Below the pieces are notes generated by a model that saw only the letters and a program-made list of their open reading frames with translations, was not told where the DNA came from and ran no database searches. A DNA stretch of 64,000 nt from an uncultured Acidobacteriota bacterium (lineage in GTDB: Bacteria > Acidobacteriota > UBA6911 > RPQK01 > JAPXNP01), in the NCBI GenBank assembly GCA_963777605.1, contig CAVZRV010000010.1, positions 512,001 to 576,000 on the forward strand. The letters are read 5' to 3'. Numbering within the stretch: the first letter of the stretch is position 1; each line of letters begins with the position of its first letter. The translations under genes were made by a program, and so were the position numbers. This document shows positions 1,132 to 25,465 of this stretch, in pieces.

Positions 1132-2356
1132 CGAAGAGTTCTCCCTTTGCCAGGGCAGTGGCAAGCCGGAGGTACACTCGGGAGATCGCCTCGCGGCTGC
1201 TGTTGCCTGCGAGCGCGGCGACGATGCGCTCTGCGAGGGTCTCCACTGAGATCAGGGCCCCGATTTCTTCAGCCGCAGCGTTATCCAGCCGGTCGGCGAC
1301 TCCTTCGAATATGGCTCTCCATAAATCGCGGGCCCTCAATGGCCCTTTGTCGCCCACGCCAAGGGCTTCCAGGTAGTCAATATTTCCGATCACATACTGC
1401 CCGCCCTGCCGAACAGTTCCTTCGAGAATCTCCAGAAGCGGTGGAATCTCCCAATCCTGCTGGGAAGCCCAGGTTGACCAACGCTCCTCCACCAGACCCT
1501 CCAGGAGCTCCACGATCAGACGATAGACGGCCAGGTCCGCCGTCGGGGACTCCTGGATATCGAGGACGCGAATCTCGATCGCGTTGCGGTCAAACCTCGG
1601 GATTGCTCCCCGCGAGTTGAGCCATTCGAACTGCAGAATCCCTTCCGGGTCATGGGGGGAGATGTCCCGGTAGATTCGAGACAGTATCCGGTTTTGATAC
1701 TCGTCGGGAGTAAACACGGCCTCCGGAATCACCAAACCGGTGATCGAGGGAACCCGTCGCTGATTCGTCCGGTAAAAGGAGAGGCGGTTGTCCGCCAACC
1801 CGGTGACTCTGCCGTCCACAATCGGAGAACTCGCCGCCAGGGCCGGAATGATGGGCAGCGCCAGACGAATCGCCGCATGGAGGCGACCAAACTCCTGGTC
1901 GTCCCCGAAAGGGAGGTTCATGTGAAGGCTTTGCAGGTTCGACCATCCGTGGCCTTGGCATCCAAAAATCCGGTTGTACGATTCATATACCGGGCTGTAC
2001 TCATGCGGCCACAGGGAGGCCTCCACAATGGGATTCATCCAGGGGTGCATAGCAGTCGGCATAAGACAGCAACCCCATTCCGCCAGAATCGAATTTGCCT
2101 GTTCAACCCCCGCCTGGAACTGAGCGTCCAGACCGTCCAGCGTTGCAGAGGGCCCGTTGGTCTTCAACTCAATAACATGAAGCACGAGTTCGTTGCACCA
2201 GGCGACCGGGCCAAGTTCGACTTCGGACACGTAACTGCCGGCTACCGCCTTCAGCAGTTCGTCGGAAACAGGGGCCACCGAGAGTTCGGCGCTGCGGACG
2301 ATCATGTACTCGAGTTCGACACCAAAGCCCTGGAAAAGGCCGAGGGGAGACGTCAA
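1106..2356 (-). CDS. Glutamate-cysteine ligase family 2 (GCS2) carboxylate-amine ligase
   Basis: Motifs FGVELEYMIV, NELVLHVIELKT, PTAMHPW, NLQSLHMN, ALAASSP, RFDRNAIEIRVLD. Confidence 0.85.
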   Translation of the reverse strand: MTSPLGLFQGFGVELEYMIVRSAELSVAPVSDELLKAVAGSYVSEVELGPVAWCNELVLHVIELKTNGPSATLDGLDAQFQAGVEQANSILAEWGCCLMPTAMHPWMNPIVEASLWPHEYSPVYESYNRIFGCQGHGWSNLQSLHMNLPFGDDQEFGRLHAAIRLALPIIPALAASSPIVDGRVTGLADNRLSFYRTNQRRVPSITGLVIPEAVFTPDEYQNRILSRIYRDISPHDPEGILQFEWLNSRGAIPRFDRNAIEIRVLDIQESPTADLAVYRLIVELLEGLVEERWSTWASQQDWEIPPLLEILEGTVRQGGQYVIGNIDYLEALGVGDKGPLRARDLWRAIFEGVADRLDNAAAEEIGALISVETLAERIVAALAGNSSREAISRVYLRLATALAKGELFDARLAPRH

Positions 2357-3819
2357 GAGGCGACTCCTTTAAGGCGGTCCAACCGGGAACTGAAAACGGA
2401 CAGGATTTTCGTGTAAAGCTGATCCTTGAGAAGCGCATCTTCGTAGCCAGCATCCACACTCGGGTTGTCGTTCACCTCGATAACAACAGCTTTGTCGCCG
2501 ATCTCCTTCAAGTCGACTCCATAGAATCCGTCACCTATCAAACCAGCCGCTTTCAGGGCCGTGCCCACCACGAGTGCCGGGGCCTCTTCAATTGGCACCG
2601 CTTCAACCCGACCGTACTCACTCCGACCCTCTCCCGCAGATTTGATTATTTGCCAGTGCCTGCGTGCCATATGATACCGGCAGACATAGATCGGTTCGCG
2701 GTTGATGATCCCGACACGCCAGTCGAAGGCGGTGGGCACGAATTCCTGAGCAATTACAAGTTCAGATCGGTCGAGGAGGCGATCCAGCTGCGTCTGCAGT
2801 TCTTGGGGCGTTTCCGCCTTGGAGACCCCTTGTGAAAATGAACTGTCCGGCTGCTTGAGAATACAGGGGAACCCAAGGGCGTCGGCAACCTGCCCGGGAG
2901 CGCTGCGGCTGACCACGAGGGTACGCGGCACTGGAATACCATGCCGAACAAGCAACTCGGCCAGGTAAACCTTGTTCGTACATCGCAGGATTGAATCCGG
3001 GTCGTCAATCACGACGAGGCCTTCAGCGCTTGCTCGTCTGGAGAAACGATACGTGTAGTGATTGACGTTGGTGGTGTCTCGAATGAAGAGTGCGTCGAAC
3101 TCTGCCAAACGCCCGAAGTCCTCCCGGGTGATTATCTCAACCGAAAAGCCAAGATCCTCGGCAGCTGAGACAAAGCGGCGGATCGCTCTCTCGTTGGAGG
3201 CGGTAGGACCCGCAGATGGGTCCCAGAGAATGGCAAGGTCGTAACGGGTCGCCGTCTTTCGCGGAACGCGAATTCCCGGTGCGGAGAGGTATTCCTGGGC
3301 GGCGTCTGCTACAAATGAACGATGGTCCTGCGGCACTTCGCTGACCCCGATCAGGCTCAGATCCCTGAGTTCCCACTCGTCACTGAATCGGAACTTGGCC
3401 CGCAGCAAAGGAGCCTCGAACAATCGGAACAAGCTCCTGCTCAGTCGGTCATAACGCTTGGCAACGTTCTTGCCGAAGTAAATGCTCAAAACGAATTCGG
3501 ACGACCGGATCGGTCTCAGACTTCGCTGTATGATTTCATCAAGATCGTCGGAAATCGCCCGGAAAATTGCCTGTGTCTTCAAGTCCTGAATCGTGGCGAC
3601 GGTGGGGATCGGCTTGTGGCCCCGGGCCTGCGCCAGTAGGGAGACGTAGTAGCCCAGACTCTGGTACCGGTAGCTCCGACACAGGTTGAACACCTTTAAC
3701 CGACGGACACGGCTAAATTCAGGGTTGGTCAGGTAGGATCGGGCCGAGATGATCTCAACACCGGGGATATCCAAGGTCCAGTTTGCCGGGTTTTGAACTA
3801 CCAGGATCGCATTGCTCAC
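2353..3819 (-). CDS. RimK-family ATP-grasp ligase with N-terminal RLAN domain
   Basis: N-terminal NLCRSYRYQSLGYYVSLLAQARGH (RLAN). ATP-grasp motifs CTNKVYL, ILKQPDSSFSQGV, QEFVPTAFDWRVG, GVDLKE, IEVNDNP. Confidence 0.9.
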   Translation of the reverse strand: MSNAILVVQNPANWTLDIPGVEIISARSYLTNPEFSRVRRLKVFNLCRSYRYQSLGYYVSLLAQARGHKPIPTVATIQDLKTQAIFRAISDDLDEIIQRSLRPIRSSEFVLSIYFGKNVAKRYDRLSRSLFRLFEAPLLRAKFRFSDEWELRDLSLIGVSEVPQDHRSFVADAAQEYLSAPGIRVPRKTATRYDLAILWDPSAGPTASNERAIRRFVSAAEDLGFSVEIITREDFGRLAEFDALFIRDTTNVNHYTYRFSRRASAEGLVVIDDPDSILRCTNKVYLAELLVRHGIPVPRTLVVSRSAPGQVADALGFPCILKQPDSSFSQGVSKAETPQELQTQLDRLLDRSELVIAQEFVPTAFDWRVGIINREPIYVCRYHMARRHWQIIKSAGEGRSEYGRVEAVPIEEAPALVVGTALKAAGLIGDGFYGVDLKEIGDKAVVIEVNDNPSVDAGYEDALLKDQLYTKILSVFSSRLDRLKGVAS

Positions 3820-3822
3820 CGC

Positions 3823-4548
3823 CTACGGCACCTCCCGACGGGTGATCACGAGGAGGTTCGCGTCGTAAGTGAGCGTCCCCAGCAGGATTGAAGAAATCAC
3901 CCGATTGATATCCATGTCGTAGAACTGCGAGTTGAAAAGCGGGTTAGGATGAAGCGGATCAGCGATACGCACCTTATGCTGTGAACCGAGAAAGCTGCAA
4001 AGAATCACAAAGTGGCCGGCCGGTTCCCCGCGGACATCGTCATAGTCATCATCGATCTCACGCGAACAGTTGTACAGATAGGTGGCACTCAAGCCAGTCA
4101 AAATCGGAGTACCTTGGGACAGAATCCGTTGCAGCAAGTCAGCTGTCAAGTCCTCGAATCGAACAATTCCTCCCTCTTCAAGGAACGACTGGTACTCCGA
4201 CATGATCTTTCTTAGCTTTCGCCCCGACTTGACCCTCTCCTGCTGACCCAGTTTATCAATCAGCCGAACCGAAAGGTCGCTGAACCAGGTGGGGTCAAAA
4301 AGCTGCAGATTGTACGTGTAAATTGTGGCGTCAAACCCTGACCGAAGGGCGTGATTACCCAGGGTAACAGCAACGGTTCCTCCACCCTCCAACTGTTCAA
4401 TCTCGTGGATCAATTCGCCCAGTTCGACTTCCTTCCCGTAGTGCCCATAAATTCCGTGAAGGCAGGTCGGGCCGCACGTCCGATCGTCCGGTTGGGGCAG
4501 GATTTCCAGGTGGATTTGGTGATAGAAGGTGCTTGGCTTCGAGGACAA
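3823..4548 (-). CDS. C39-like (papain-fold) cysteine peptidase
   Basis: QPDDRTCGPTCL (Q..C), GHFVIL (H) and IADP (D). A TTG start at 4548 is preceded by GGGAG. Confidence 0.75.
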   Translation of the reverse strand: MSSKPSTFYHQIHLEILPQPDDRTCGPTCLHGIYGHYGKEVELGELIHEIEQLEGGGTVAVTLGNHALRSGFDATIYTYNLQLFDPTWFSDLSVRLIDKLGQQERVKSGRKLRKIMSEYQSFLEEGGIVRFEDLTADLLQRILSQGTPILTGLSATYLYNCSREIDDDYDDVRGEPAGHFVILCSFLGSQHKVRIADPLHPNPLFNSQFYDMDINRVISSILLGTLTYDANLLVITRREVP

Positions 4549-4566
4549 ACCGATACTCCCAGTGGG

Positions 4567-4572
4567 ATTATA
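4567..4572 (-). promoter_or_regulatory. Candidate -10 box (TATAAT) for the peptide-ligase operon
   Basis: Perfect TATAAT just upstream of the GGGAG RBS. No consensus -35 is visible. Confidence 0.35.
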
Positions 4573-4603
4573 GACCGAAACTGGCGACCGCCGCGCGGGC
4601 GTA

Positions 4604-4790
4604 ATGGACTTTCGGCTCCGGTTTCGGAGCTTCAACGAGGTGCTGGATGGTGACGGGAAGGCAGTGCTTGCGAACGCGAGCGTGCAACTGATGTTCGGGT
4701 ACGCTCTCTACTTGCCGGAACTGAACAGCGCAGCGGACCTCCTCCGGACTGCAGACCAACGCATGTATGAAGACAAAATGAAAGGTCGGC
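4604..4790 (+). pseudogene. Remnant of a GGDEF domain C-terminus
   Basis: VQLMFGYALY...AADLLRTADQRMYEDK resembles the GGDEF terminal strand and helix (S.G.A.yp...lL..AD..MY..K). The GGDEF motif itself is absent. Confidence 0.55.
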
Positions 4791-4840
4791 TTGCCCCGCT
4801 AGCCCGGGGGCGTCCTTCCAGCGGGCTCGTCCGACCTGCG

Positions 4841-4870
4841 TTGACGGCCTCAGAGTCCCTCATCTATGCT
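4841..4870 (+). promoter_or_regulatory. Sigma70-like promoter for the amrS operon
   Basis: TTGACG (4841-4846), 18-bp spacer, TATGCT (4865-4870). Confidence 0.5.
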
Positions 4871-4966
4871 GGTCAGTGTAGATCAGACCAAGTGCCCCGG
4901 TAACGGAGCTTCGCTGATGAGGTGCCTGACCGTTACACCGGGCGGCTTGGGAACGGAGCGCGAGTC

Positions 4967-6251
4967 GTGGATTCGAAGTCGAAGGGAGAGGAACCCCGGC
5001 CGGCCGGGTGGCACACCCGTCGAGAGTTTCTGGAGGCACTGGTTCCGGCTACCTGTGCCACCTGTCTCGCTACGATGTTGCCCGGACACGTCTTGGCCAG
5101 GGCGGCGACGAAGTCTGGATCGACACCCGAAACAATCTTCGAGATCCTCAGAAACGCGCCCGAGGCACGTTACTGGATTGCCCCCGGAGATGCCCCGTCC
5201 TCCTGCCGCGGCTGTCACGACCCGGGCGACGGCATCAATCTTCAGACGGCCCACGATCACAAGGAGCATCCCGTGCAGTGCCAACTCTGTGCACGCCAGT
5301 GCCTGATCTTCGAAGGTGAACGCGGGATGTGTCGATCCCGCATGAACGTCGGAGGCAAACTGAGAAGCCTGGTTTACGGCCGCCCCGCCGCAGTCCACGT
5401 TGATCCCATTGAGAAGAAGCCCTTCTACCACTTCCTTCCCGGCGCGATGGCCTTCTCTCTGGCCACAACCGGGTGTCCGCTTCGCTGCAAATTCTGTCAG
5501 AACTGGGAACTTTCCCAGTCCAGCCCCGAGGACTACAGCGTGTCTTTCACCCCGCCCGACCTGGTCGTTTCGGCCGCCAGGGATCGAAAGACCCCGGTGA
5601 TCGCGTTCACCTACAACGAACCGACTGTGTTCATTGAGTACCTCACGGACATCGCCCGGAAGGCCCGCAAGAGAGGAATGGCATCCGTCCTGGTGAGCTG
5701 CGGGTTCATGGCTGAAGAACCGCTTGCCGAGATGTGCGAAGTCCTCGACGGCATCAAGATCGACCTGAAGGGTTACGGCGAGGACTTTTACCGGGAGGTC
5801 TGCGGTGCCCATCTGGGACCGGTCCTGCGCTCGATCAAGCAGATCTCCCAGAGTGGAGTCCACCTCGAGATCGTTAACCTGGTGGTGCCAACCCTGAATG
5901 ACTCGGAACCGATGCTTCGGGAGCTTTCCAACTGGATCGTCGGCGAATTGGGGCCCGACGTACCGATCCATTTCACCCGGTTTCACCCCGACTATCGCCT
6001 GCTGAACCTGCCTCCGACCCCGAGTCTCGACACTGGAAAGGGCTTACGGGATCGCCCGCGCAGCCGGCATTCACTATCCCTACGTGGGCAACGTCCCCGG
6101 GCACCGCGGAGATAACACTTACTGTCCGCGATGCGGGACAGAACTGATCACCCGGAGCGGGTTCTTCGTCGTCGAATCGAAGATCAAGAACGGGCGCTGC
6201 TCCTCCTGCGACTTTCCGATCGCCGGAGTCTGGACCCGAGAAAGTCAGTGA
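4967..6251 (+). CDS. amrS: AmmeMemoRadiSam radical SAM enzyme with a Tat-type leader and CxxCH insert; +1 frameshift at about 6023
   Basis: CQLCARQC, DPIEKKPFYHF, radical SAM motif CPLRCKFCQNWELSQ, AFTYNEP, IHFTRFHP. Removing A6023 restores ...PTPVSTLERAYGIARAAGIHYPYVGNVPGH..NTYCPRCG...CSSC..IAGVW, ending at TGA 6251. GTG start at 4967 follows GGAG. Confidence 0.9.
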
Positions 6252-6254
6252 AAC

Positions 6255-7820
6255 ATGCGTCACCTCTGGCTGTGCGCTCTTGCCTTATCCCTCGTGCTCA
6301 CGGCTGAATTCTGCACTGCCGCCGACGATGATATCCGTCCATCGGCGGTTTCCGGTCAGTTCTACCCGGCAGATCCTGCAGTACTCAGGGAAACCGTCGA
6401 TTCGTTCCTGTCGGCAAGCCACAAGAAAGTCGGTGGCAAACCATTTCTCATCGTCTGCCCCCACGCAGGCTACGCCTATTCGGGCAAGGTCGCAGCCGCG
6501 GCATTCAAAGAGGCGGCGGGAAACCGTTACGACCTGGTCATCATCCTCGGCACCAACCACACCACGGCGGGGTTCAACAAGGCAGCGGTCTTCGTCGGCG
6601 ACGGGTTTGAGACGCCGCTCGGGGTTGCGAAGGTCGATCGTTCGGCCGCCTCGCAACTGCTCGATTCTGACTCCATCTTCACCGAGTTCGCCGCGGTTCA
6701 CCGGGCCGAGCACTCCATCGAGGTGCAAGTGCCTTTCATCCAGGTACTTTTTCCCGGCGTTCCGATCGTTCCAATCGTGGTATCGACTACTGATCTTTCC
6801 GACTGCGAGCACATCGGAAGAGAACTTGCCCGGCTTTCAAGAGACCGGTCGGTTTTGATCGTGGCGAGTTCCGATCTTTCCCACTACCCCCGATACCAAG
6901 ACGCAGAGAAGGTCGATCACAAGACCCTCGATCTGATCGTTCAGGAAGACGTCAAGGCACTCCATCGTTACCTGACGCGGATTCCGGGAAGCGCTCCGTC
7001 GCTGGTTACCGGCGCCTGCGGGGAAGGGCCGATCCTGGCGGGGATATGTGCAGCCCGCACACTCGGAATCGAACACGGCATCCAGATAGCGTACGCCAAC
7101 TCGGGGGATCTCCTCCCCGGTAGCCGCGACCGGGTTGTCGGCTACGGAGCAGTGGCGTTCCTTTACAGTGCCCCGGCCGGTAGTACCCCGGCCGTCGATC
7201 CTGCCGTTCCGCCAGCGCCTTCTGATGGGCGAAACAAACCAGGGCCGTCCAGCGAAACGCTCGACAGCAACACGAAGCGCGCTCTCCTGCGACTGGCTCG
7301 CCGGGCCATTACCGAGTTCGTCACGAGCGGACGAGACTTCGAGGAAATGACCGGGAAAACGAAGATTTCGTTTCGGGCGGGCGCGTTCGTCACTCTTCGC
7401 GAGAACGGCCGATTGAGAGGTTGCATCGGCCGGCTGGAGCCCGACCTGCCGCTCGAGGAAGTCATCGCCCGGTACGCAGTCTACGCAGCAACGCAGGATC
7501 CCCGCTTCAACCCGGTCAGGCCGGCCGAAGTGAAGCAGTTGGATATCGAGATCTCAGTGCTCAGCACTCCCAGGCCGGTGCCCGGTTTCCAGGCCATCCG
7601 AATCGGTCGGGACGGTGTAGTGCTGACGAAGGACGGGCACTCAGCCACGTTCCTTCCCCAGGTCGCCGACGAACAGCACTGGAGTCGTAACGAAATGCTC
7701 TCCAACCTCTGTCTGAAGGCCGGACTCGAGGAAAACTGCTGGACCGAGGGTGCCCGATTCGAAACTTACCAGGCAACCGTGTTCAGCGAAACCGATCTTG
7801 CGCCCGAGACGCCACGTTGA
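6255..7820 (+). CDS. amrB: AmrB (Memo-like)-AmrA (AMMECR1) fusion with Sec signal peptide
   Basis: IRPSAVSGQFYP, PHAGYAYSG, EHSIEVQ, SSDLSHY, VVGY; then GAFVTL, LRGCIG, DPRF, ATFLPQVA, LCLKAG. Hydrophobic N-terminal leader. Confidence 0.92.
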   Translation: MRHLWLCALALSLVLTAEFCTAADDDIRPSAVSGQFYPADPAVLRETVDSFLSASHKKVGGKPFLIVCPHAGYAYSGKVAAAAFKEAAGNRYDLVIILGTNHTTAGFNKAAVFVGDGFETPLGVAKVDRSAASQLLDSDSIFTEFAAVHRAEHSIEVQVPFIQVLFPGVPIVPIVVSTTDLSDCEHIGRELARLSRDRSVLIVASSDLSHYPRYQDAEKVDHKTLDLIVQEDVKALHRYLTRIPGSAPSLVTGACGEGPILAGICAARTLGIEHGIQIAYANSGDLLPGSRDRVVGYGAVAFLYSAPAGSTPAVDPAVPPAPSDGRNKPGPSSETLDSNTKRALLRLARRAITEFVTSGRDFEEMTGKTKISFRAGAFVTLRENGRLRGCIGRLEPDLPLEEVIARYAVYAATQDPRFNPVRPAEVKQLDIEISVLSTPRPVPGFQAIRIGRDGVVLTKDGHSATFLPQVADEQHWSRNEMLSNLCLKAGLEENCWTEGARFETYQATVFSETDLAPETPR

Positions 7821-9955
7821 AAATTGAACTTTTCGTGATCGGCCTGGTATCCATTCTCGGCCAGGTCGTGATCCTGCGAGAGCTCAACGTAGCCTTCTTC
7901 GGCATCGAGCTGATTTACATCCTTGCGATCGGGAGTTGGTTGCTTGGAACCACGGCAGGAGCAATCATTTTCGGCCGCAGACTTCGACCTCCCCGAAGCG
8001 GGATCGAGGTAATGCTTCTTGCAGCCGCATTGCTCGTCCCCGCGGAAGTGGTCTTTCTCCGCGGGCACCGGCTCCTCTTCGGGGGAGTTGCCGGGGCTTA
8101 CCTCTCCTACGAACACCAACTCGCCTCGCTGATCCTGGCAACCTGCCCTGTCGGACTCGTGCTTGGTCTCCTCTTTCAGTGGGCAGCCAAGCGATACTGT
8201 GCTGACACGGGCAGCCTGGGCCGAGCCTATGCGATCGAGAGCCTGGGAGGGCTCGTCGGAGGGGTTGTCTCGTTCGGCTCTCTCTCGCTCACAATCCCCA
8301 ACCTCGCAGTGGCGCTGATCTGCGGCCTGGCGGCCGCTGCTCCGTTGGTTTTGTGCCGGAGGAACCGGGTCGTGGTGTTGGCCGGAGGATTGGCGATCTC
8401 CCTGTTTGGCCTGGCTCTCTGGTTCTCACCAACCCTCGACCTGGGCCTGACCGCTCTCAACCACCCCAACCTCGTTTCATCCCTTGACACTCCTTACGGC
8501 CGGATCACGGTTTGTCGGGAAGGTGGCCAGGTGACGGTATTCAAAGACGACGTCTACGTCTACGAAAGCCAGGAAAACTCGGCGGAAGAACTGGTTCACT
8601 TGGCAGCTCTCCAGGTAGCAGAGCCACGCCGGATCCTGGTAATTGGTGGAGGGGTTTTTGGCCTCGTTCGTGAGGCTTCAAGGTACCGGCCGGAGACTCT
8701 CGACTCGTTCGAGATCAATGCGAAGATGGAGCAATTCGTCGGCAAGTTCCTCATGCCGGATCAGAGTTCCGCCAGGGTTACACCGACCTCCCGGCTGGAG
8801 GCCGGGGAACCTCGCCAACTTCTTCGCCAGTCCGGCCGGTACGATCTCATCATTTTGGGAATCCCGGATCCCGACTCGGGGCAGGACAATCGCTTCTTTA
8901 CCCAGGAATTCTTTCAGTTGGTCCGGGAGCACCTCACCCAGGAGGGAGTCCTGGCCTTCCGGCTCGGCACTACCCCAAACGTCTTCACCCAGGCACGGCT
9001 TGCCCGGGACGGAAGCATCGGGCGTGCCCTCGCCGATGTCTTTCCCGATACCATCGCCCTGCCGGCAACCTCAACCATTGTCGTCGCCGGCCTGCGGCCC
9101 CTGAACCGGGACACTACCCTGCTCGAAGCTCGGTGGCAGACACGAAACATCAAAACCCGGCTCGTTTCCGTTCCCTACATCGACTACCTCTTCAACGGAG
9201 ATCGTTTTCCGGCGTTGAACCGTCAACTGTTTGAAACGGACGTAACGCCGAACCGGGACCTGGCGCCGGTTTGTTTTCGTTATTCGACCTGGATTTGGCT
9301 CTCGCGGATTTTCCCCTCCCTGACCAACCGCCTGCCGACCGGGCCCGGGTCTGCGGCATGGACTATTGCCGCAATGTTCTGTCTCGCCGCAGGTTGTCTG
9401 GCCTGGATGCTTGCCCGCAAGTCCCGGAGGCTCCAGGCGATTTTGCTCATGACCCTGGCAGCGGCCGCCGGGATGTTCCTCGAAACCCTCCTTCTCCTCT
9501 ACTACGAGACCCGGCACGGAGTACTCTACCGGGACCTGGGCCTGCTCCTGATGATGTTCATGCTTGGCCTCGCAGCCGGGGCCGCATCCCTCTCCTCCTG
9601 GCTCGGCAACCAGTCTCGGATCGGGAGGCGCTGGGGAGTCGTCCTGTCGGCCGGCTTCCTCTTGCTCTCGCTCACCTACATCCTCTCGCTCAGAATCGCT
9701 TCGGGAGCTTCGCTCGAACTCGTTGCCCTGCAACTCTTTGGAGCAGGCCTGATGGTGGCGGGCGTCTTCATCTACTGCAGCCGGAAAGGTGTCCAGGATG
9801 AGAGAAGTGTCGTGTCGCCGCTGTACGCCGCCGACTTGCTGGGGGGCTTTGCCGCGACCTTGATCGGAAGCCTTTTACTGCTTCCGTTCCTGGGTTTCGT
9901 GCTGTCTGGCTGGGTCGTCTTCGGAGTCGCTCTGGCGACGCTGCTATTCGTCTGA
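7817..9955 (+). CDS. Polytopic membrane protein with a central spermidine-synthase-like (class I SAM-binding) domain
   Basis: About 7 N-terminal TMs, then TPYGRI, EELVH, ILVIGGG, YDLIILGIPDP, NRFFTQEFF, PNRDLAP, then about 6 C-terminal TMs with LYAADLLG. TTGA overlap with amrB. Confidence 0.8.
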   Translation: MKIELFVIGLVSILGQVVILRELNVAFFGIELIYILAIGSWLLGTTAGAIIFGRRLRPPRSGIEVMLLAAALLVPAEVVFLRGHRLLFGGVAGAYLSYEHQLASLILATCPVGLVLGLLFQWAAKRYCADTGSLGRAYAIESLGGLVGGVVSFGSLSLTIPNLAVALICGLAAAAPLVLCRRNRVVVLAGGLAISLFGLALWFSPTLDLGLTALNHPNLVSSLDTPYGRITVCREGGQVTVFKDDVYVYESQENSAEELVHLAALQVAEPRRILVIGGGVFGLVREASRYRPETLDSFEINAKMEQFVGKFLMPDQSSARVTPTSRLEAGEPRQLLRQSGRYDLIILGIPDPDSGQDNRFFTQEFFQLVREHLTQEGVLAFRLGTTPNVFTQARLARDGSIGRALADVFPDTIALPATSTIVVAGLRPLNRDTTLLEARWQTRNIKTRLVSVPYIDYLFNGDRFPALNRQLFETDVTPNRDLAPVCFRYSTWIWLSRIFPSLTNRLPTGPGSAAWTIAAMFCLAAGCLAWMLARKSRRLQAILLMTLAAAAGMFLETLLLLYYETRHGVLYRDLGLLLMMFMLGLAAGAASLSSWLGNQSRIGRRWGVVLSAGFLLLSLTYILSLRIASGASLELVALQLFGAGLMVAGVFIYCSRKGVQDERSVVSPLYAADLLGGFAATLIGSLLLLPFLGFVLSGWVVFGVALATLLFV

Positions 9956-22837: not shown

Positions 22838-24280
22838 TCAGTTGTCGGAGCCGGGTCCAAAGACACTTGCCGAGAAACGGAATATCACGGTGTCGGAACG
22901 CTCCCACGCCGCAGGCTCGAGACCAGCCTTGGTGCAGGTCTGACGGAGTAACGCAAGTCGGTCCCAGCCATGCTCCGGGGCCACCTGCGGGAGAAGCAGT
23001 CCGCGCCGGGAGCCTTGCTCTATCATCAGTCCGTCACGGCCGATTTCGATTTCGTCGATGCGCCGCACGATCCTGAGCGGAGAGAGAATCGATATCTCAT
23101 AGTCGATCTCCTCCAACTCAGACTCCGTAACCGGCGGAAATCTCGGGTCGAGCGTCGCCGCACTGATCGCAGCATTCCTGACCGCGTCGGCCAGTGGCTC
23201 GCGGGCCACGATGCTGCCGATGCAACCGCGCAAAACCCCTCCGAACCGAAGAGTTACAAAGACGGCGGCCGGCTCTTCCAGATCGGGCAAATCTGGTCGT
23301 TCCACGGCCGAGCGGGTTCCCTCCACCGCGTCATCCAGGGCCTGGCGACAGATTTCGAGAAGTTGTCGGCGGACAGCCGGGCCGGGCCCGAAATCAGGAT
23401 CCCGCAACCCTTCGGTCTCGACGAATGCGGCTGAAAGGTAGCCGACGACTCCATCCCTCCGAAACGGAGGGACGTCACCCGAACTCGAGTAATTGAGGAT
23501 TTCGGCACGGTTACCGCCTGCCTGCTGTGCCGCAATCATGGCGGCGGCAACAGGTCCTGCTCCGCATGCCTCGGACTCCCCACCCTCCACATTCTGAAGA
23601 AGGCTGAGGTAATCCCATTTTCGGATCATGCTGATCACGCGATTGTCCAGATCACGGGCCTCGGAGTAAGGGTGATAGTGGGAGAGGTCGGAACTTGCCA
23701 CGAGCACGCTGTCACCGTCCATCAGATCGGCCAGTGCGATTCCCAATTTCCGGCAGGTGGACCAGTCCTGGCTGCCGAGCACAATGGGAACGAGCAAAAA
23801 GCTGTCCATAATCGCCTGCAGAAACGGCAACTGTACCTCGAGGGCGTGCTCGCCCCTGCCGCCCCTTCCTGTCACATGGCCCCGCTCCGAAACAGCGCCG
23901 GCACCGGCCGCCGCCAGCCGTCCAGCGAACTCACTGTCAACCGGAATCTTTCCCAACGGCGTCAAATAGTGGGAACCCGAAAAGATTGAAGCTCCGTCGA
24001 AAGCGTCCACGTGACACGGAGCAATCACCACCACTCGACGCGGCTTTTGCCGTGCCAGCAGTTTGAACCCGTGAGCGGCAACTTGTCCCGAGTAGGGATA
24101 CCCGGCGTGGGGAGAGACGACGGCAATGACCCTCCCCAGGTTCTCGGGAACCGAAGCATCGCTCAGGTAGCCGTCCACCTGGTCCTTCAGGTCGCTGGGA
24201 TCGTCCGGGTAGAACAGGCCTGCGACTGCCGGCTCCCGGACCAGCCCGCGTCGCGTGCGGGAGAAATCAATTCCGTACAC
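22838..24280 (-). CDS. amrB: Second AmrB-AmrA fusion, without signal peptide
   Basis: VREPAVAGLFYP, SPHAGYPYSG, EHALEVQLPFL, SSDLSHY, AVFVTL, LRGCIG, DPRF, GLLLPQVA. GTG start at 24280 after GGAGGAGG. Confidence 0.92.
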   Translation of the reverse strand: MYGIDFSRTRRGLVREPAVAGLFYPDDPSDLKDQVDGYLSDASVPENLGRVIAVVSPHAGYPYSGQVAAHGFKLLARQKPRRVVVIAPCHVDAFDGASIFSGSHYLTPLGKIPVDSEFAGRLAAAGAGAVSERGHVTGRGGRGEHALEVQLPFLQAIMDSFLLVPIVLGSQDWSTCRKLGIALADLMDGDSVLVASSDLSHYHPYSEARDLDNRVISMIRKWDYLSLLQNVEGGESEACGAGPVAAAMIAAQQAGGNRAEILNYSSSGDVPPFRRDGVVGYLSAAFVETEGLRDPDFGPGPAVRRQLLEICRQALDDAVEGTRSAVERPDLPDLEEPAAVFVTLRFGGVLRGCIGSIVAREPLADAVRNAAISAATLDPRFPPVTESELEEIDYEISILSPLRIVRRIDEIEIGRDGLMIEQGSRRGLLLPQVAPEHGWDRLALLRQTCTKAGLEPAAWERSDTVIFRFSASVFGPGSDN

Positions 24281-24439
24281 GGTAACACCTCCTCCAGACC
24301 GCTCTTTGAAAAATTGCAAGCGATTCGGTAGGCGTCCCCATTCTAACTCGCGCCGGGCCATTCAGAAACCGTGCCCGATGATCTTTTTCACTTCCTTCTG
24401 CTAGAATCAACGCCAACGGGTGAAGAAAAGGTAAACATC

Positions 24440-25465
24440 ATGCAAGGACGAGGTACTCCGGAGAACCCTGCCAACCGCTTTGACCGGCTCCATCTCGAGT
24501 GGGACGAAGGTTACCAGCCGAGTGCGGAAACCCACTTCCTGGTTGACCGAACCGGCAGAATCATCACTTCGAACGACAGTCCGGACATCGGCTACGACTT
24601 CAGCCTGAATCCTTATCGGGGTTGCGAGCACGGCTGCATTTACTGCTACGCCCGCCCTACTCACGAATACCTCGGTTATTCCTCCGGCCTCGACTTTGAA
24701 ACCCGGATCCTGGTCAAAACCGAAGCTCCGACGCTGCTCCGCCGCGAGCTCGACTCGCCGCGCTGGTCCCCCGCCGTAGTGGCGCTCTCCGGGGTAACCG
24801 ATCCCTATCAGCCGGCGGAACGCCGACTCCGGTTAACCCGCGGCTGCCTCGAAGTGCTTGCGGAATTCCGCAACCCGGTCACGATTATCACCAAGAATCA
24901 TCTCATCACCCGGGACCTTGACCTGCTCGAAGAACTCTCTCGTTTCAATGGCGTCAGCGCCCGGGTTTCGGTGACCACGCTGAACGCCGAGCTGCACCGA
25001 GTCATGGAACCTCGCACATCCAGTCCTCGCCGCCGCCTCGACGCGATCGAACAACTTGCGCGCCACGGGATACCGGTTGGCGTCATGGTGGCACCGGTAA
25101 TTCCCGGTCTGAATGATCACGAGATCCCCGAGATCCTGAAGCAAGCCCGACTCCGGGGAGCGATCGCCGCTCACTTCCAGATCGTGCGACTGCCCTATTC
25201 CGTCAAGGACCTCTTCATCTCGTGGCTGCGGGAGCGCTTCCCCGATCGCGCCGACCGGGTAATCAACCGAATCCTGGAGGTCCGAGCCGGACGTCTGAAT
25301 GACTCCCGCTTCTTTCATCGCATGCGGGGAGAGGGGGAGTATGCGGGGCAGATTCAGCAACTCTTCGAGAGGTCCCATCGCCGGGAAGCGTTCCTGGACC
25401 ACCTGCCGCCACTCTCCTGCGCTTCATTTCGACGCCAGGGTCAGCTCAGGCTCCCCTGGGATTGA
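24440..25465 (+). CDS. PA0069/Rv2578c-family (SplB-like) radical SAM protein
   Basis: GRGTPENPANRF, SLNPYRGCEHGCIYCYARPTHEYLG, TDPYQPAE. Confidence 0.9.
   Translation: MQGRGTPENPANRFDRLHLEWDEGYQPSAETHFLVDRTGRIITSNDSPDIGYDFSLNPYRGCEHGCIYCYARPTHEYLGYSSGLDFETRILVKTEAPTLLRRELDSPRWSPAVVALSGVTDPYQPAERRLRLTRGCLEVLAEFRNPVTIITKNHLITRDLDLLEELSRFNGVSARVSVTTLNAELHRVMEPRTSSPRRRLDAIEQLARHGIPVGVMVAPVIPGLNDHEIPEILKQARLRGAIAAHFQIVRLPYSVKDLFISWLRERFPDRADRVINRILEVRAGRLNDSRFFHRMRGEGEYAGQIQQLFERSHRREAFLDHLPPLSCASFRRQGQLRLPWD

Follow-up and report, generated by a model that had tools for sequence, protein, structure and literature searches.

Can a radical S-adenosylmethionine (SAM) enzyme work outside the cytoplasm? 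The radical SAM enzymes, among the largest of all enzyme superfamilies, are taken as cytoplasmic because they need SAM, iron-sulfur cluster assembly and a strong reductant. The question is raised by an operon in a 64,000-nucleotide stretch of DNA from an uncultured Acidobacteriota bacterium, the whole of which is called the window below. On the forward strand at 4967-9955, three translationally coupled genes encode the radical SAM protein AmrS, an AmrB-AmrA fusion (AmrBA) and a membrane protein, here termed MFS-SpeE, in which a major facilitator superfamily (MFS) fold carries a domain resembling spermidine synthase (SpeE). AmrS, AmrB and AmrA make up the AmmeMemoRadiSam system, the function of which is not established. 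The first-pass annotation, made from the sequence alone, proposed a periplasmic or membrane-anchored radical SAM machine. Export leaders, gene linkage and the predicted topology agree with this proposal, but the SAM binding it assumed is called into doubt by altered residues in the SpeE motifs. We consider the operon to be probably a self-contained, extracytoplasmic and membrane-anchored variant of the AmmeMemoRadiSam system.

Leaders, linkage and spread of the module

The three genes had been placed correctly in the first reading, as profile matches to AmrS, AmrB, AmrA and PF01564 confirm. The first part of AmrS alone scores 289.9 bits with TIGR04337 (cut-off 220) and also matches PF04055; a tail displaced by a frameshift adds 60.5 bits. 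AmrBA, a single fused open reading frame (ORF), scores 236.3 bits with TIGR04336 (cut-off 26) and 176.1 bits with TIGR04335 (cut-off 99). The operon thus resembles canonical AmmeMemoRadiSam in having the same three families adjacent, all above curated cut-offs, and the C-x3-C-x2-C and N-terminal C-x2-C-x3-C...C motifs are common to both. Compared with the canonical system, the variant adds a twin-arginine translocation (Tat) leader on AmrS, a CxxCH insertion (in this clade), a signal peptide on the AmrB-AmrA fusion and an obligate-looking MFS-SpeE. Because the TIGR04337 match begins only at residue 111 of the longest AmrS ORF, about 95 residues precede the canonical core. The gene starts with GTG at 4967, the position at which the public gene call P0002 also begins, and GGAG is found 8 nucleotides 5' of it. 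Its stop codon (6249-6251) is separated by 3 nucleotides from the AmrBA ATG at 6255, and the MFS-SpeE TTG at 7817 overlaps the AmrBA stop TGA (7818-7820).

The T-R-R-E-F-L motif of AmrS at 5015-5032, with a hydrophobic stretch ending in A-R-A, had been pointed out in the first reading and has the form of a Tat-substrate leader. Its conservation was assessed in the 120 best of 7488 homologues (387-565 aa, window protein included). An RR motif (R-R-x-hydrophobic-hydrophobic) lies ahead of the core in 111 of these 120, is preceded by S or T in 102 of the 111, and is followed by a segment with a median best 12-residue hydropathy of 1.69. Eight of the nine motif-less homologues look like truncated gene calls, because they begin within or past the hydrophobic stretch; the ninth (P0007) has S-R-R-E-F-C, which the search pattern missed. 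Both arginines and C-x-x-C-H are invariant columns in a 105-row alignment (A3), and the RR motif is present in 78 of the 80 genome loci found with the window AmrS protein. As a canonical control, the 120 best homologues of L001, the second AmrS of the same genome, were used. RR motif and CxxCH are each found in 0/120 of them, a contrast that lies well outside chance, and the cluster motif has a median position of 89, versus 161 in the leader-bearing set. In a tree computed with leader and insertion trimmed, leader-bearing AmrS is split from canonical AmrS with full support (SH-aLRT 100) and the CxxCH type forms one nested group (support 86); this was a quick IQ-TREE run with a narrow canonical sample of 25 close relatives of one paralogue. 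The genome encodes the Tat machinery (TatC, PF00902, 220 bits). Known Tat-exported iron-sulfur proteins include Rieske proteins and hydrogenase small subunits. They share the S/T-R-R-x-F-L leader in front of a cofactor-bearing passenger, but the passenger of AmrS is a radical SAM enzyme, needing SAM and a low-potential reductant.

AmrBA begins with a hydrophobic stretch of 23 residues, described earlier as a Sec-like leader, and such a leader recurs in all 72 loci with a readable region, in many cases in lipobox-like form. By these comparisons, the leaders of AmrS and AmrBA lie upstream of the catalytic cores and are conserved, and a start-codon artefact, with true starts downstream of the leaders, is excluded. 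Leaderless paralogues without the additions of the variant occur in the same genome. One is L001 (G000:C10:590764-591810, about 15 kb past the window end), a canonical AmrS with 650 bits on TIGR04337, no leader and no CxxCH; its neighbours are quinone-oxidoreductase-like and uroporphyrinogen-decarboxylase-like genes, not AmrA/B. The other is a second AmrB-AmrA fusion (507 aa) at 22838-24361 on the reverse strand of the window, with a hydrophilic N-terminus. Divergent from it, a 364-aa ORF at 24371-25465 (+) has a C-x3-C-x2-C-type motif and may be another radical SAM protein. With this leaderless fusion and the possible radical SAM ORF beside it, the genome appears to hold a cytoplasmic as well as an exported Amr set.

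A control set of leaderless AmrBA from the phylum of the window was sought in 201 genomes (tally 135/201, including one unpublished genome on which no locus or claim depends) and discarded, as 10 of 12 lower-scoring fusions also bore leaders and only L186 and L192 lacked one. Nine of these ten leader-bearing loci (L185, L187-L191 and L193-L196) have neither AmrS nor MFS-SpeE in their 1.5-kb flanks, and L187 has both. The full module may be rarer than exported Memo-AMMECR1 fusions.

Gene linkage was followed in both directions. AmrB and AmrA lie directly downstream of AmrS in 68 of the 70 loci with at least 2 kb of sequence after AmrS (exceptions L012 and L016), and MFS-SpeE follows in 52 of the 56 with at least 4.5 kb (exceptions L012, L016, L039 and L056). 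MFS-SpeE usually starts no more than about 30 nucleotides from the AmrBA end, and an unrelated gene is inserted between them in four loci. The leader and the AmrB-AmrA fusion recur in the related loci, which are labelled as Acidobacteriota, Desulfobacterota/Syntrophales, Latescibacterota, Ignavibacteria, Calditrichota, KSB1, Eisenbacteria, Fibrobacteraceae and Bacteroidota; judged by these source labels, the gene order recurs in metagenome-assembled genomes (MAGs) of about ten phyla. When an alignment of the membrane protein was used as query for the reverse search, 77 new loci came up, and ten of them were set aside for short flanks. Amr genes adjoin MFS-SpeE in 44 of 45 judgeable loci with close homologues (at least 34% identity) and in 14 of 22 with distant ones (25-33% identity). 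The co-occurrence of Tat-type AmrS, leader-bearing AmrBA and MFS-SpeE as a clade therefore holds in the forward and the reverse search. The distant loci come from Terriglobales, Anaerolineales, Pirellulaceae, a Desulfobacterales MAG and an Altiarchaeota MAG. Their gene order is often different, AmrS has an RR leader (R-K in L159), AmrB has a signal or lipobox-like leader, and CxxCH is mostly absent.

The Altiarchaeota locus (L142) has MFS-SpeE beside AmrS with an RR leader and an AmrB-AmrA fusion with a lipobox-like leader on the opposite strand; either the module is shared between bacteria and archaea or the contig was assigned to the wrong bin. In six Terriglobales MAG loci (L153, L154, L156, L160, L164 and L166), AmrS has an RR leader without CxxCH and is convergent with MFS-SpeE. 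A DUF362 protein with its own S/T-R-R-D-F-L leader precedes AmrS there and may be an alternative periplasmic redox partner. An all-against-all comparison of ORFs found no fourth gene family in more than 22 of 136 non-redundant loci, and the module therefore looks self-contained. Among the other neighbours in these loci, response regulators, DUF362/ferredoxin proteins, dehydrogenases and cation antiporters are the more frequent, and genes for a SAM decarboxylase, a SAM synthetase or a cytochrome do not recur.

The CxxCH motif, which the first-pass annotation did not mention, lies in an insertion of about 25 residues that separates the A-R-Y-W motif from the first Cys cluster and is not present in canonical AmrS. 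It is found in all 120 close homologues, and a His follows after 12-15 residues in 103 of 103 sequences, with no further Cys in the insertion. This arrangement is, as a sequence pattern, the signature of a bis-His c-type haem site. AmrS shares the invariant motif and the potential axial ligand with c-type cytochromes, but it has a single short motif within a Tat passenger and no significant match to a cytochrome family. The chances that a c-type haem is covalently bound here appear roughly even. Cytochrome c assembly genes occur in this genome, and PF01578 was found in 20 of 20 other genomes with CxxCH-type AmrS, set against a high base rate (9 of 14 control genomes). On an Anaerolineales chromosome (L147, 1959-5334), the genes for ResB (CcsB) and CcsA immediately precede a CxxCH-type AmrS gene and share its orientation; as this applies to only one of 136 loci, it is an anecdote.

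The membrane protein and its predicted contact with AmrS

The third gene product had been described as a protein of about 13 transmembrane helices with a spermidine-synthase fold. The fold stands, but 14 helices are predicted and they adopt an MFS fold. An AlphaFold2 model built with 49 sequences (pLDDT 90, pTM 0.89) consists of seven helices, a domain of 300 residues and seven further helices. A Foldseek search against the PDB caught only the SpeE part, and the MFS fold emerged only in the wide search with VIA. In that search many MFS entries matched with Z above 20, spanning the model from residue 1 to 712, among them VMAT2 (9kqa; Z 29.6, root-mean-square deviation 3.4, 329 aligned), VAChT (8zmr; Z 28.3) and SotB (6kki; Z 26.5). 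The Pfam MFS family does not match the protein. Its helices superpose on those of DHA1 antiporters and vesicular amine transporters (VMAT2, VAChT, SotB, NorA and MdfA) over 329-338 residues with Z 26-30. Identity to these is only 10-13%, and MFS-SpeE, itself a predicted transporter, differs in having two extra helices with the enzyme-like domain of 300 residues.

This domain has the complete SpeE fold. SpeE structures match it with TM scores of 0.73-0.78 (target-normalised) over 257-287 columns, 1uir aligns over 267 residues (Z 29.4, root-mean-square deviation 2.4), and the Thermus SpeE match has an E-value of 8.7e-16. The cut-offs of the SpeE families are not reached: the scores are 59.5 versus 249.55 for TIGR00417, 66.6 versus 260 for NF002010 and 65.8 versus 472 for NF002956, and NF037959, which describes fused MFS/spermidine synthases, matches the SpeE part only, with 23.1 bits against a cut-off of 40. 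NF037959 and PRK03612/NF002956 (membrane-bound polyamine aminopropyltransferase) likewise have a SpeE fold joined to a polytopic membrane part, and NF002956 aligns to residues 52-383 of MFS-SpeE, partly in the membrane region. MFS-SpeE differs from them in its scores far below the cut-offs, the insertion of the domain between the MFS halves, the replacement of the first D-x-x-D-P Asp by Gly and the tie to Amr genes. The family comprises 2058 representative clusters at an E-value of at most 1e-30.

In MFS proteins, the termini and the central loop are cytoplasmic. As the domain is flanked here by the hydrophobic helices 7 and 8 and the MFS termini are cytoplasmic, it must face the outer side; it is thus predicted to lie in a periplasmic loop, opposite the termini and between two extra helices. 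The distribution of Lys and Arg follows this topology, with 13.8 on the predicted inner loops versus 5.6 on the outer ones and an inner excess in 49 of 49 sequences. The Arg/Lys clusters R-R-N-R and R-K-S-R-R border helices 7 and 8. Conserved carboxylates (E141, E556 and D673) are embedded in the membrane within helices 5, 9 and 13, and comparable intramembrane carboxylates are present in cation/H+ antiporters.

Part of the complex suggested for modelling in the first-pass annotation was modelled with the orthologues of L009, the most closely related locus, using the SpeE-like domain (residues 204-512) and mature AmrS (residues 50-428), each with its own alignment. The two dock with ipSAE values of 0.90, 0.91 and 0.90, compared with 0.00 for the best of three controls; in calibration, 58 of 80 solved complexes and 2 of 110 mismatched pairs reached the ipSAE mark. 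The runs share at least 93% of contacts, and the pLDDT of the partners is at least 89. To our knowledge there is no solved complex of this kind, and memory is therefore unlikely to explain the score. On AmrS, the contacts (142-148, 180-191, 217, 342-357, 378-380 and 399-404 in L009 numbering) surround the C-x3-C-x2-C motif at 171-178; by analogy with pyruvate formate-lyase (PFL)-activating enzyme, this face is the mouth of the radical SAM barrel. On the SpeE side, the contacts include the invariant N388 and R463 and the nearly invariant Q238, Y454, Y457, N461, D462 and P500.

The earlier idea that the membrane protein supplies or uses SAM gains indirect support from the MFS fold, which is like that of amine/H+ antiporters, from the predicted periplasmic SpeE-like domain and from AmrS docking. 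Its description as SAM-binding fares less well, in view of the motif residues of this copy discussed below.

Proposed mechanism and competing explanations

Under the favoured reading of an extracytoplasmic AmmeMemoRadiSam variant, AmrS would be loaded with iron-sulfur clusters in the cytoplasm and exported in folded form via Tat, and AmrBA would follow the Sec route by its Sec or lipoprotein leader. In the periplasm, AmrS would sit with its barrel mouth on the SpeE-like domain. The MFS part, resembling cation/H+ antiporters, would export a cationic compound to supply the enzymes in the periplasm; SAM or a derivative of it is the most attractive candidate, and an amine is the alternative. In the CxxCH clade, electrons might enter through a covalent c-type haem at the CxxCH...His module. 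The Memo-AMMECR1 fusion would then perform the chemistry of the triad on a substrate located in the envelope.

Several points weigh against this reading. The D-x-x-D-P motif and the acidic residue of the G-G-G-D/E-G loop have catalytic roles in SpeE. In the window copy, the first Asp of the former is a Gly (L-G-I-P-D-P, compared with I-D-L-T-D-P in Thermus; the MFS-SpeE family consensus is V-G-M-P-E-P), and the acid of the glycine loop is missing (G-G-G-V-F-G, compared with G-G-G-E-G-A in Thermus). To judge from these residues, the domain is not an orthodox SpeE and may not use SAM or decarboxylated SAM. We know of no SAM in the periplasm and of no MFS exporter for it. The Pfam TAT_signal model matched just 19 of 105 sequences at E-values up to 1, a result attributed to its insensitivity here. 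Attachment of c-type haem normally follows Sec export of an unfolded protein, whereas the AmrS leader is of the twin-arginine type; Tat leader and CxxCH are therefore an odd pair. Subclades exist that have the leader and lack CxxCH, and matches to cytochrome families in Pfam are insignificant (NrfB-like in 5 of 105 sequences, best E-value 0.047; cytochrome c7 in 3 of 105). A Cys2His2 zinc site is a possible alternative for the module, and the stretch draws weak zinc-ribbon hits in Pfam. MFS-SpeE is missing from 4 of 56 loci and Amr genes from 8 of 22 distant MFS-SpeE loci, and the related loci all come from MAGs. In the complex, the SpeE-like domain was modelled cut out of the membrane protein and taken from an orthologous locus, and the modelled contacts 215-217 and 497-504, which lie next to helices 7 and 8, might be masked by the membrane part. 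The AmrS interface is no more specific to the clade than the rest of the protein (38 versus 325 positions). In the leader-bearing clade, 26 of 38 interface positions are conserved at 0.8 or above and 12 of these 26 deviate from the consensus of canonical AmrS; in the background, 199 of 325 positions are conserved and 86 of those 199 deviate. Without enrichment over the rest of AmrS, interface specificity is neutral.

The state of the copy in the window also counts against the favoured reading, as AmrS has a frameshift and the upstream gene is reduced to a remnant. Family and location of AmrS had been recognised in the first reading, but its gene is not intact: a +1 frameshift at about 6018-6023, overlooked there, puts the last 76 residues in the next frame. 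The AmrS homologues are all continuous across this site, and the closest related locus (L009) is intact. Because of this one-base frameshift, the AmrS copy here may be inactive. Directly upstream of the operon, a 99-codon ORF at 4604-4903 (+) is a deletion remnant; of the PAS-GGDEF protein (732 aa) encoded upstream of AmrS in L009, just a PAS fragment and the 34 C-terminal residues have a match in it. It is only slightly less than an even prospect that the frameshift is genuine rather than an assembly error, the window copy is decaying and the operon no longer functions in this organism. The extra base lies outside any long homopolymer. Uninterrupted frames of 1031, 1394 and 1210 codons in rpoB (partial), rpoC and dnaE show that indels do not pervade the assembly, and the shrinkage of the diguanylate-cyclase gene of L009 to the upstream remnant points the same way. 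Decay is harder to reconcile with intact AmrBA (521 aa) and MFS-SpeE (712 aa) genes and with the good conservation of both AmrS halves. A single assembly error is also conceivable. The three sequencing runs checked for the frameshift hold just 0.05-0.11 of the sampled words, their contigs leave 6000-6300 uncovered, and no RNA run holding the sequence turned up. Elsewhere in the genome (G000:C8:297542-300475), a second DnaE-like match contains two in-frame TGA codons, which may reflect a defective gene for an error-prone polymerase or a fault in the assembly.

The main rival mechanism is that AmrS acts as a maturase of the PFL-activase branch, which is exported with SAM bound, docks once and modifies or activates a residue of the SpeE-like domain, leaving MFS-SpeE as the working enzyme. 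We regard this as unlikely, although it has attractions. The nearest solved fold of the AmrS core is PFL-activating enzyme with its peptide substrate (3cb8; E-value 1.7e-15, TM 0.82, target-normalised, over 255 columns), and NCBIfam activase models give weak hits. This enzyme binds the substrate peptide at the barrel mouth, the place where the partner of AmrS is modelled: the SpeE-like domain lies on the cluster-motif face, with the invariant N388 and R463 touching. Translational coupling suggests matched amounts, and a standing periplasmic pool of SAM would not be needed. AmrS nevertheless shares only 18% identity with PFL-activating enzyme and has extra N-terminal Cys and CxxCH modules, a zinc-ribbon-like C-terminus and a predicted periplasmic location. 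No gene for a glycyl-radical enzyme was found near AmrS, and no motif of glycyl-radical type was identified at the interface. Canonical AmmeMemoRadiSam systems, including the paralogues in this genome, run without a SpeE-like partner, MFS-SpeE is missing from four of 56 loci, and under the maturase model neither the transporter fold nor the AmrBA fusion would have anything to do.

That the module deals with an extracellular compound of the polyamine type seems improbable to us. Here MFS would export a diamine or polyamine, the SpeE-like domain would bind or alkylate it outside the cell, and AmrS and AmrBA would modify it for attachment to the envelope. DHA1-type exporters do export diamines and polyamines, and it is to these and to the vesicular amine transporters that the membrane part is closest (see the Z values for VMAT2, VAChT and SotB above); the soluble domain has the full aminopropyltransferase fold and retains the second acidic residue of D-x-x-D-P. 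Aminopropyl transfer outside would still require a SAM-derived donor there, the first Asp of the motif is a Gly, and neither a SAM decarboxylase nor a polyamine gene is among the conserved neighbours in 136 loci. It is very improbable that the leaders are no export signals at all. The RR and hydrophobic segments would then be membrane tethers or chaperone-binding remnants, the topology would be mispredicted, and the system would work at the inner side of the membrane, with access to SAM and reductants. A cytoplasmic location is otherwise the rule for radical SAM enzymes and also holds for the central loop of a standard MFS protein with 12 helices, and the poor response of the TAT_signal model would fit. 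For this to be correct, three independent predictions must fail, namely the Tat motif of AmrS, the AmrBA leaders and the two extra MFS helices, the Arg/Lys clusters of which put the SpeE-like domain on the far side. The cytoplasmic paralogues of the same genome have none of these features, and in one genome CxxCH together with the adjacent ResB-CcsA pair points outward.

The locus and its significance

The features of the operon are listed in Table 1. A scan for promoters and terminators was at chance level, with one promoter-like site versus 0.9 expected. A gene for a cytidylate-kinase-like protein (PF13189; 9969-10874, reverse strand) is convergent with MFS-SpeE and keeps this position only in L009 and L010. 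On the other side of the module, a RimK-like ATP-grasp protein with an RLAN N-terminal domain (2353-3819, reverse strand) adjoins a C39-like peptidase-domain protein (3823-4635, reverse strand), and this pair is found beside the module in L009 only (70% and 66% identity).

Table 1. Positions of the operon features in the window
Feature	Position	Strand	Basis
AmrS-type radical SAM protein, first part (351 codons, to frameshift)	4967-6020	+	TIGR04337 289.9 bits, profile positions 5-263; P0002 start
Tat-type leader: n-region, T-R-R-E-F-L 5015-5032 (residues 17-22), hydrophobic stretch, A-R-A to about 5104	4967-5104	+	sequence
CxxCH in insertion of about 25 residues, conserved His 12-15 residues further	5204-5218	+	sequence, homologue counts
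Radical SAM cluster motif C-x3-C-x2-C	5474-5497	+	sequence, PF04055; invariant in alignments A1 and A3
+1 frameshift (one extra base) in conserved P-P-T-P-V-x-T-L-E-R-A stretch	6018-6023	+	frame comparison
AmrS C-terminal 76 residues and stop, +1 frame, CxxC...CxxC zinc-ribbon-like end	6021-6251	+	TIGR04337 positions 260-338, 60.5 bits
AmrB-AmrA fusion (521 aa): leader 6255-6323, Memo about 6336-7160, AMMECR1 about 7281-7784	6255-7820	+	PF01875, PF01871, TIGR04336, TIGR04335
MFS-fold predicted transporter (712 aa, 14 helices) with inserted SpeE-like domain	7817-9955	+	AlphaFold2, structure searches; PF01564 at residues 257-380
SpeE-like (aminopropyltransferase-fold) domain between helices 7 and 8, predicted periplasmic, predicted AmrS docking site	8429-9346	+	Thermus SpeE match, models

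We know of no example of an exported radical SAM enzyme. Secreted Memo contexts may already be described by Burroughs et al. 2019 (J Biol Chem). No description of an exported radical SAM enzyme, a Tat-type AmrS or an MFS-SpeE fusion was found in the literature searched. In PMC10924467 a radical SAM gene is merely a neighbour, and the exported protein described in PMC13128918 is the effector rather than the enzyme.

A widespread conserved clade with export signals on every component would overturn the assumption that radical SAM enzymes work only in the cytoplasm. The module offers plausible built-in answers to the difficulties, as a transporter could provide the supply and electrons could come from a haem or from a redox partner exported by Tat. 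In its boldest form, which we hold to be possible but doubtful, AmrS would be the first radical SAM enzyme working outside the cytoplasm, exported in folded form via Tat, wired by its own covalent c-type haem to periplasmic electron carriers and docked on a dedicated MFS protein whose SpeE-like domain hands over exported SAM or a derivative. Radical chemistry would then take place in the envelope of at least ten bacterial phyla and a double-membraned archaeal lineage, and SAM or a derivative would be deliberately exported. The MFS-SpeE family is itself large and uncharacterised. A tractable variant would become available for the Memo/AMMECR1/AmrS triad, a functional orphan with relatives linked to human disease. 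The location of this variant would narrow the substrates of the triad to envelope molecules, and the predicted contact between AmrS and the SpeE-like domain is directly testable.

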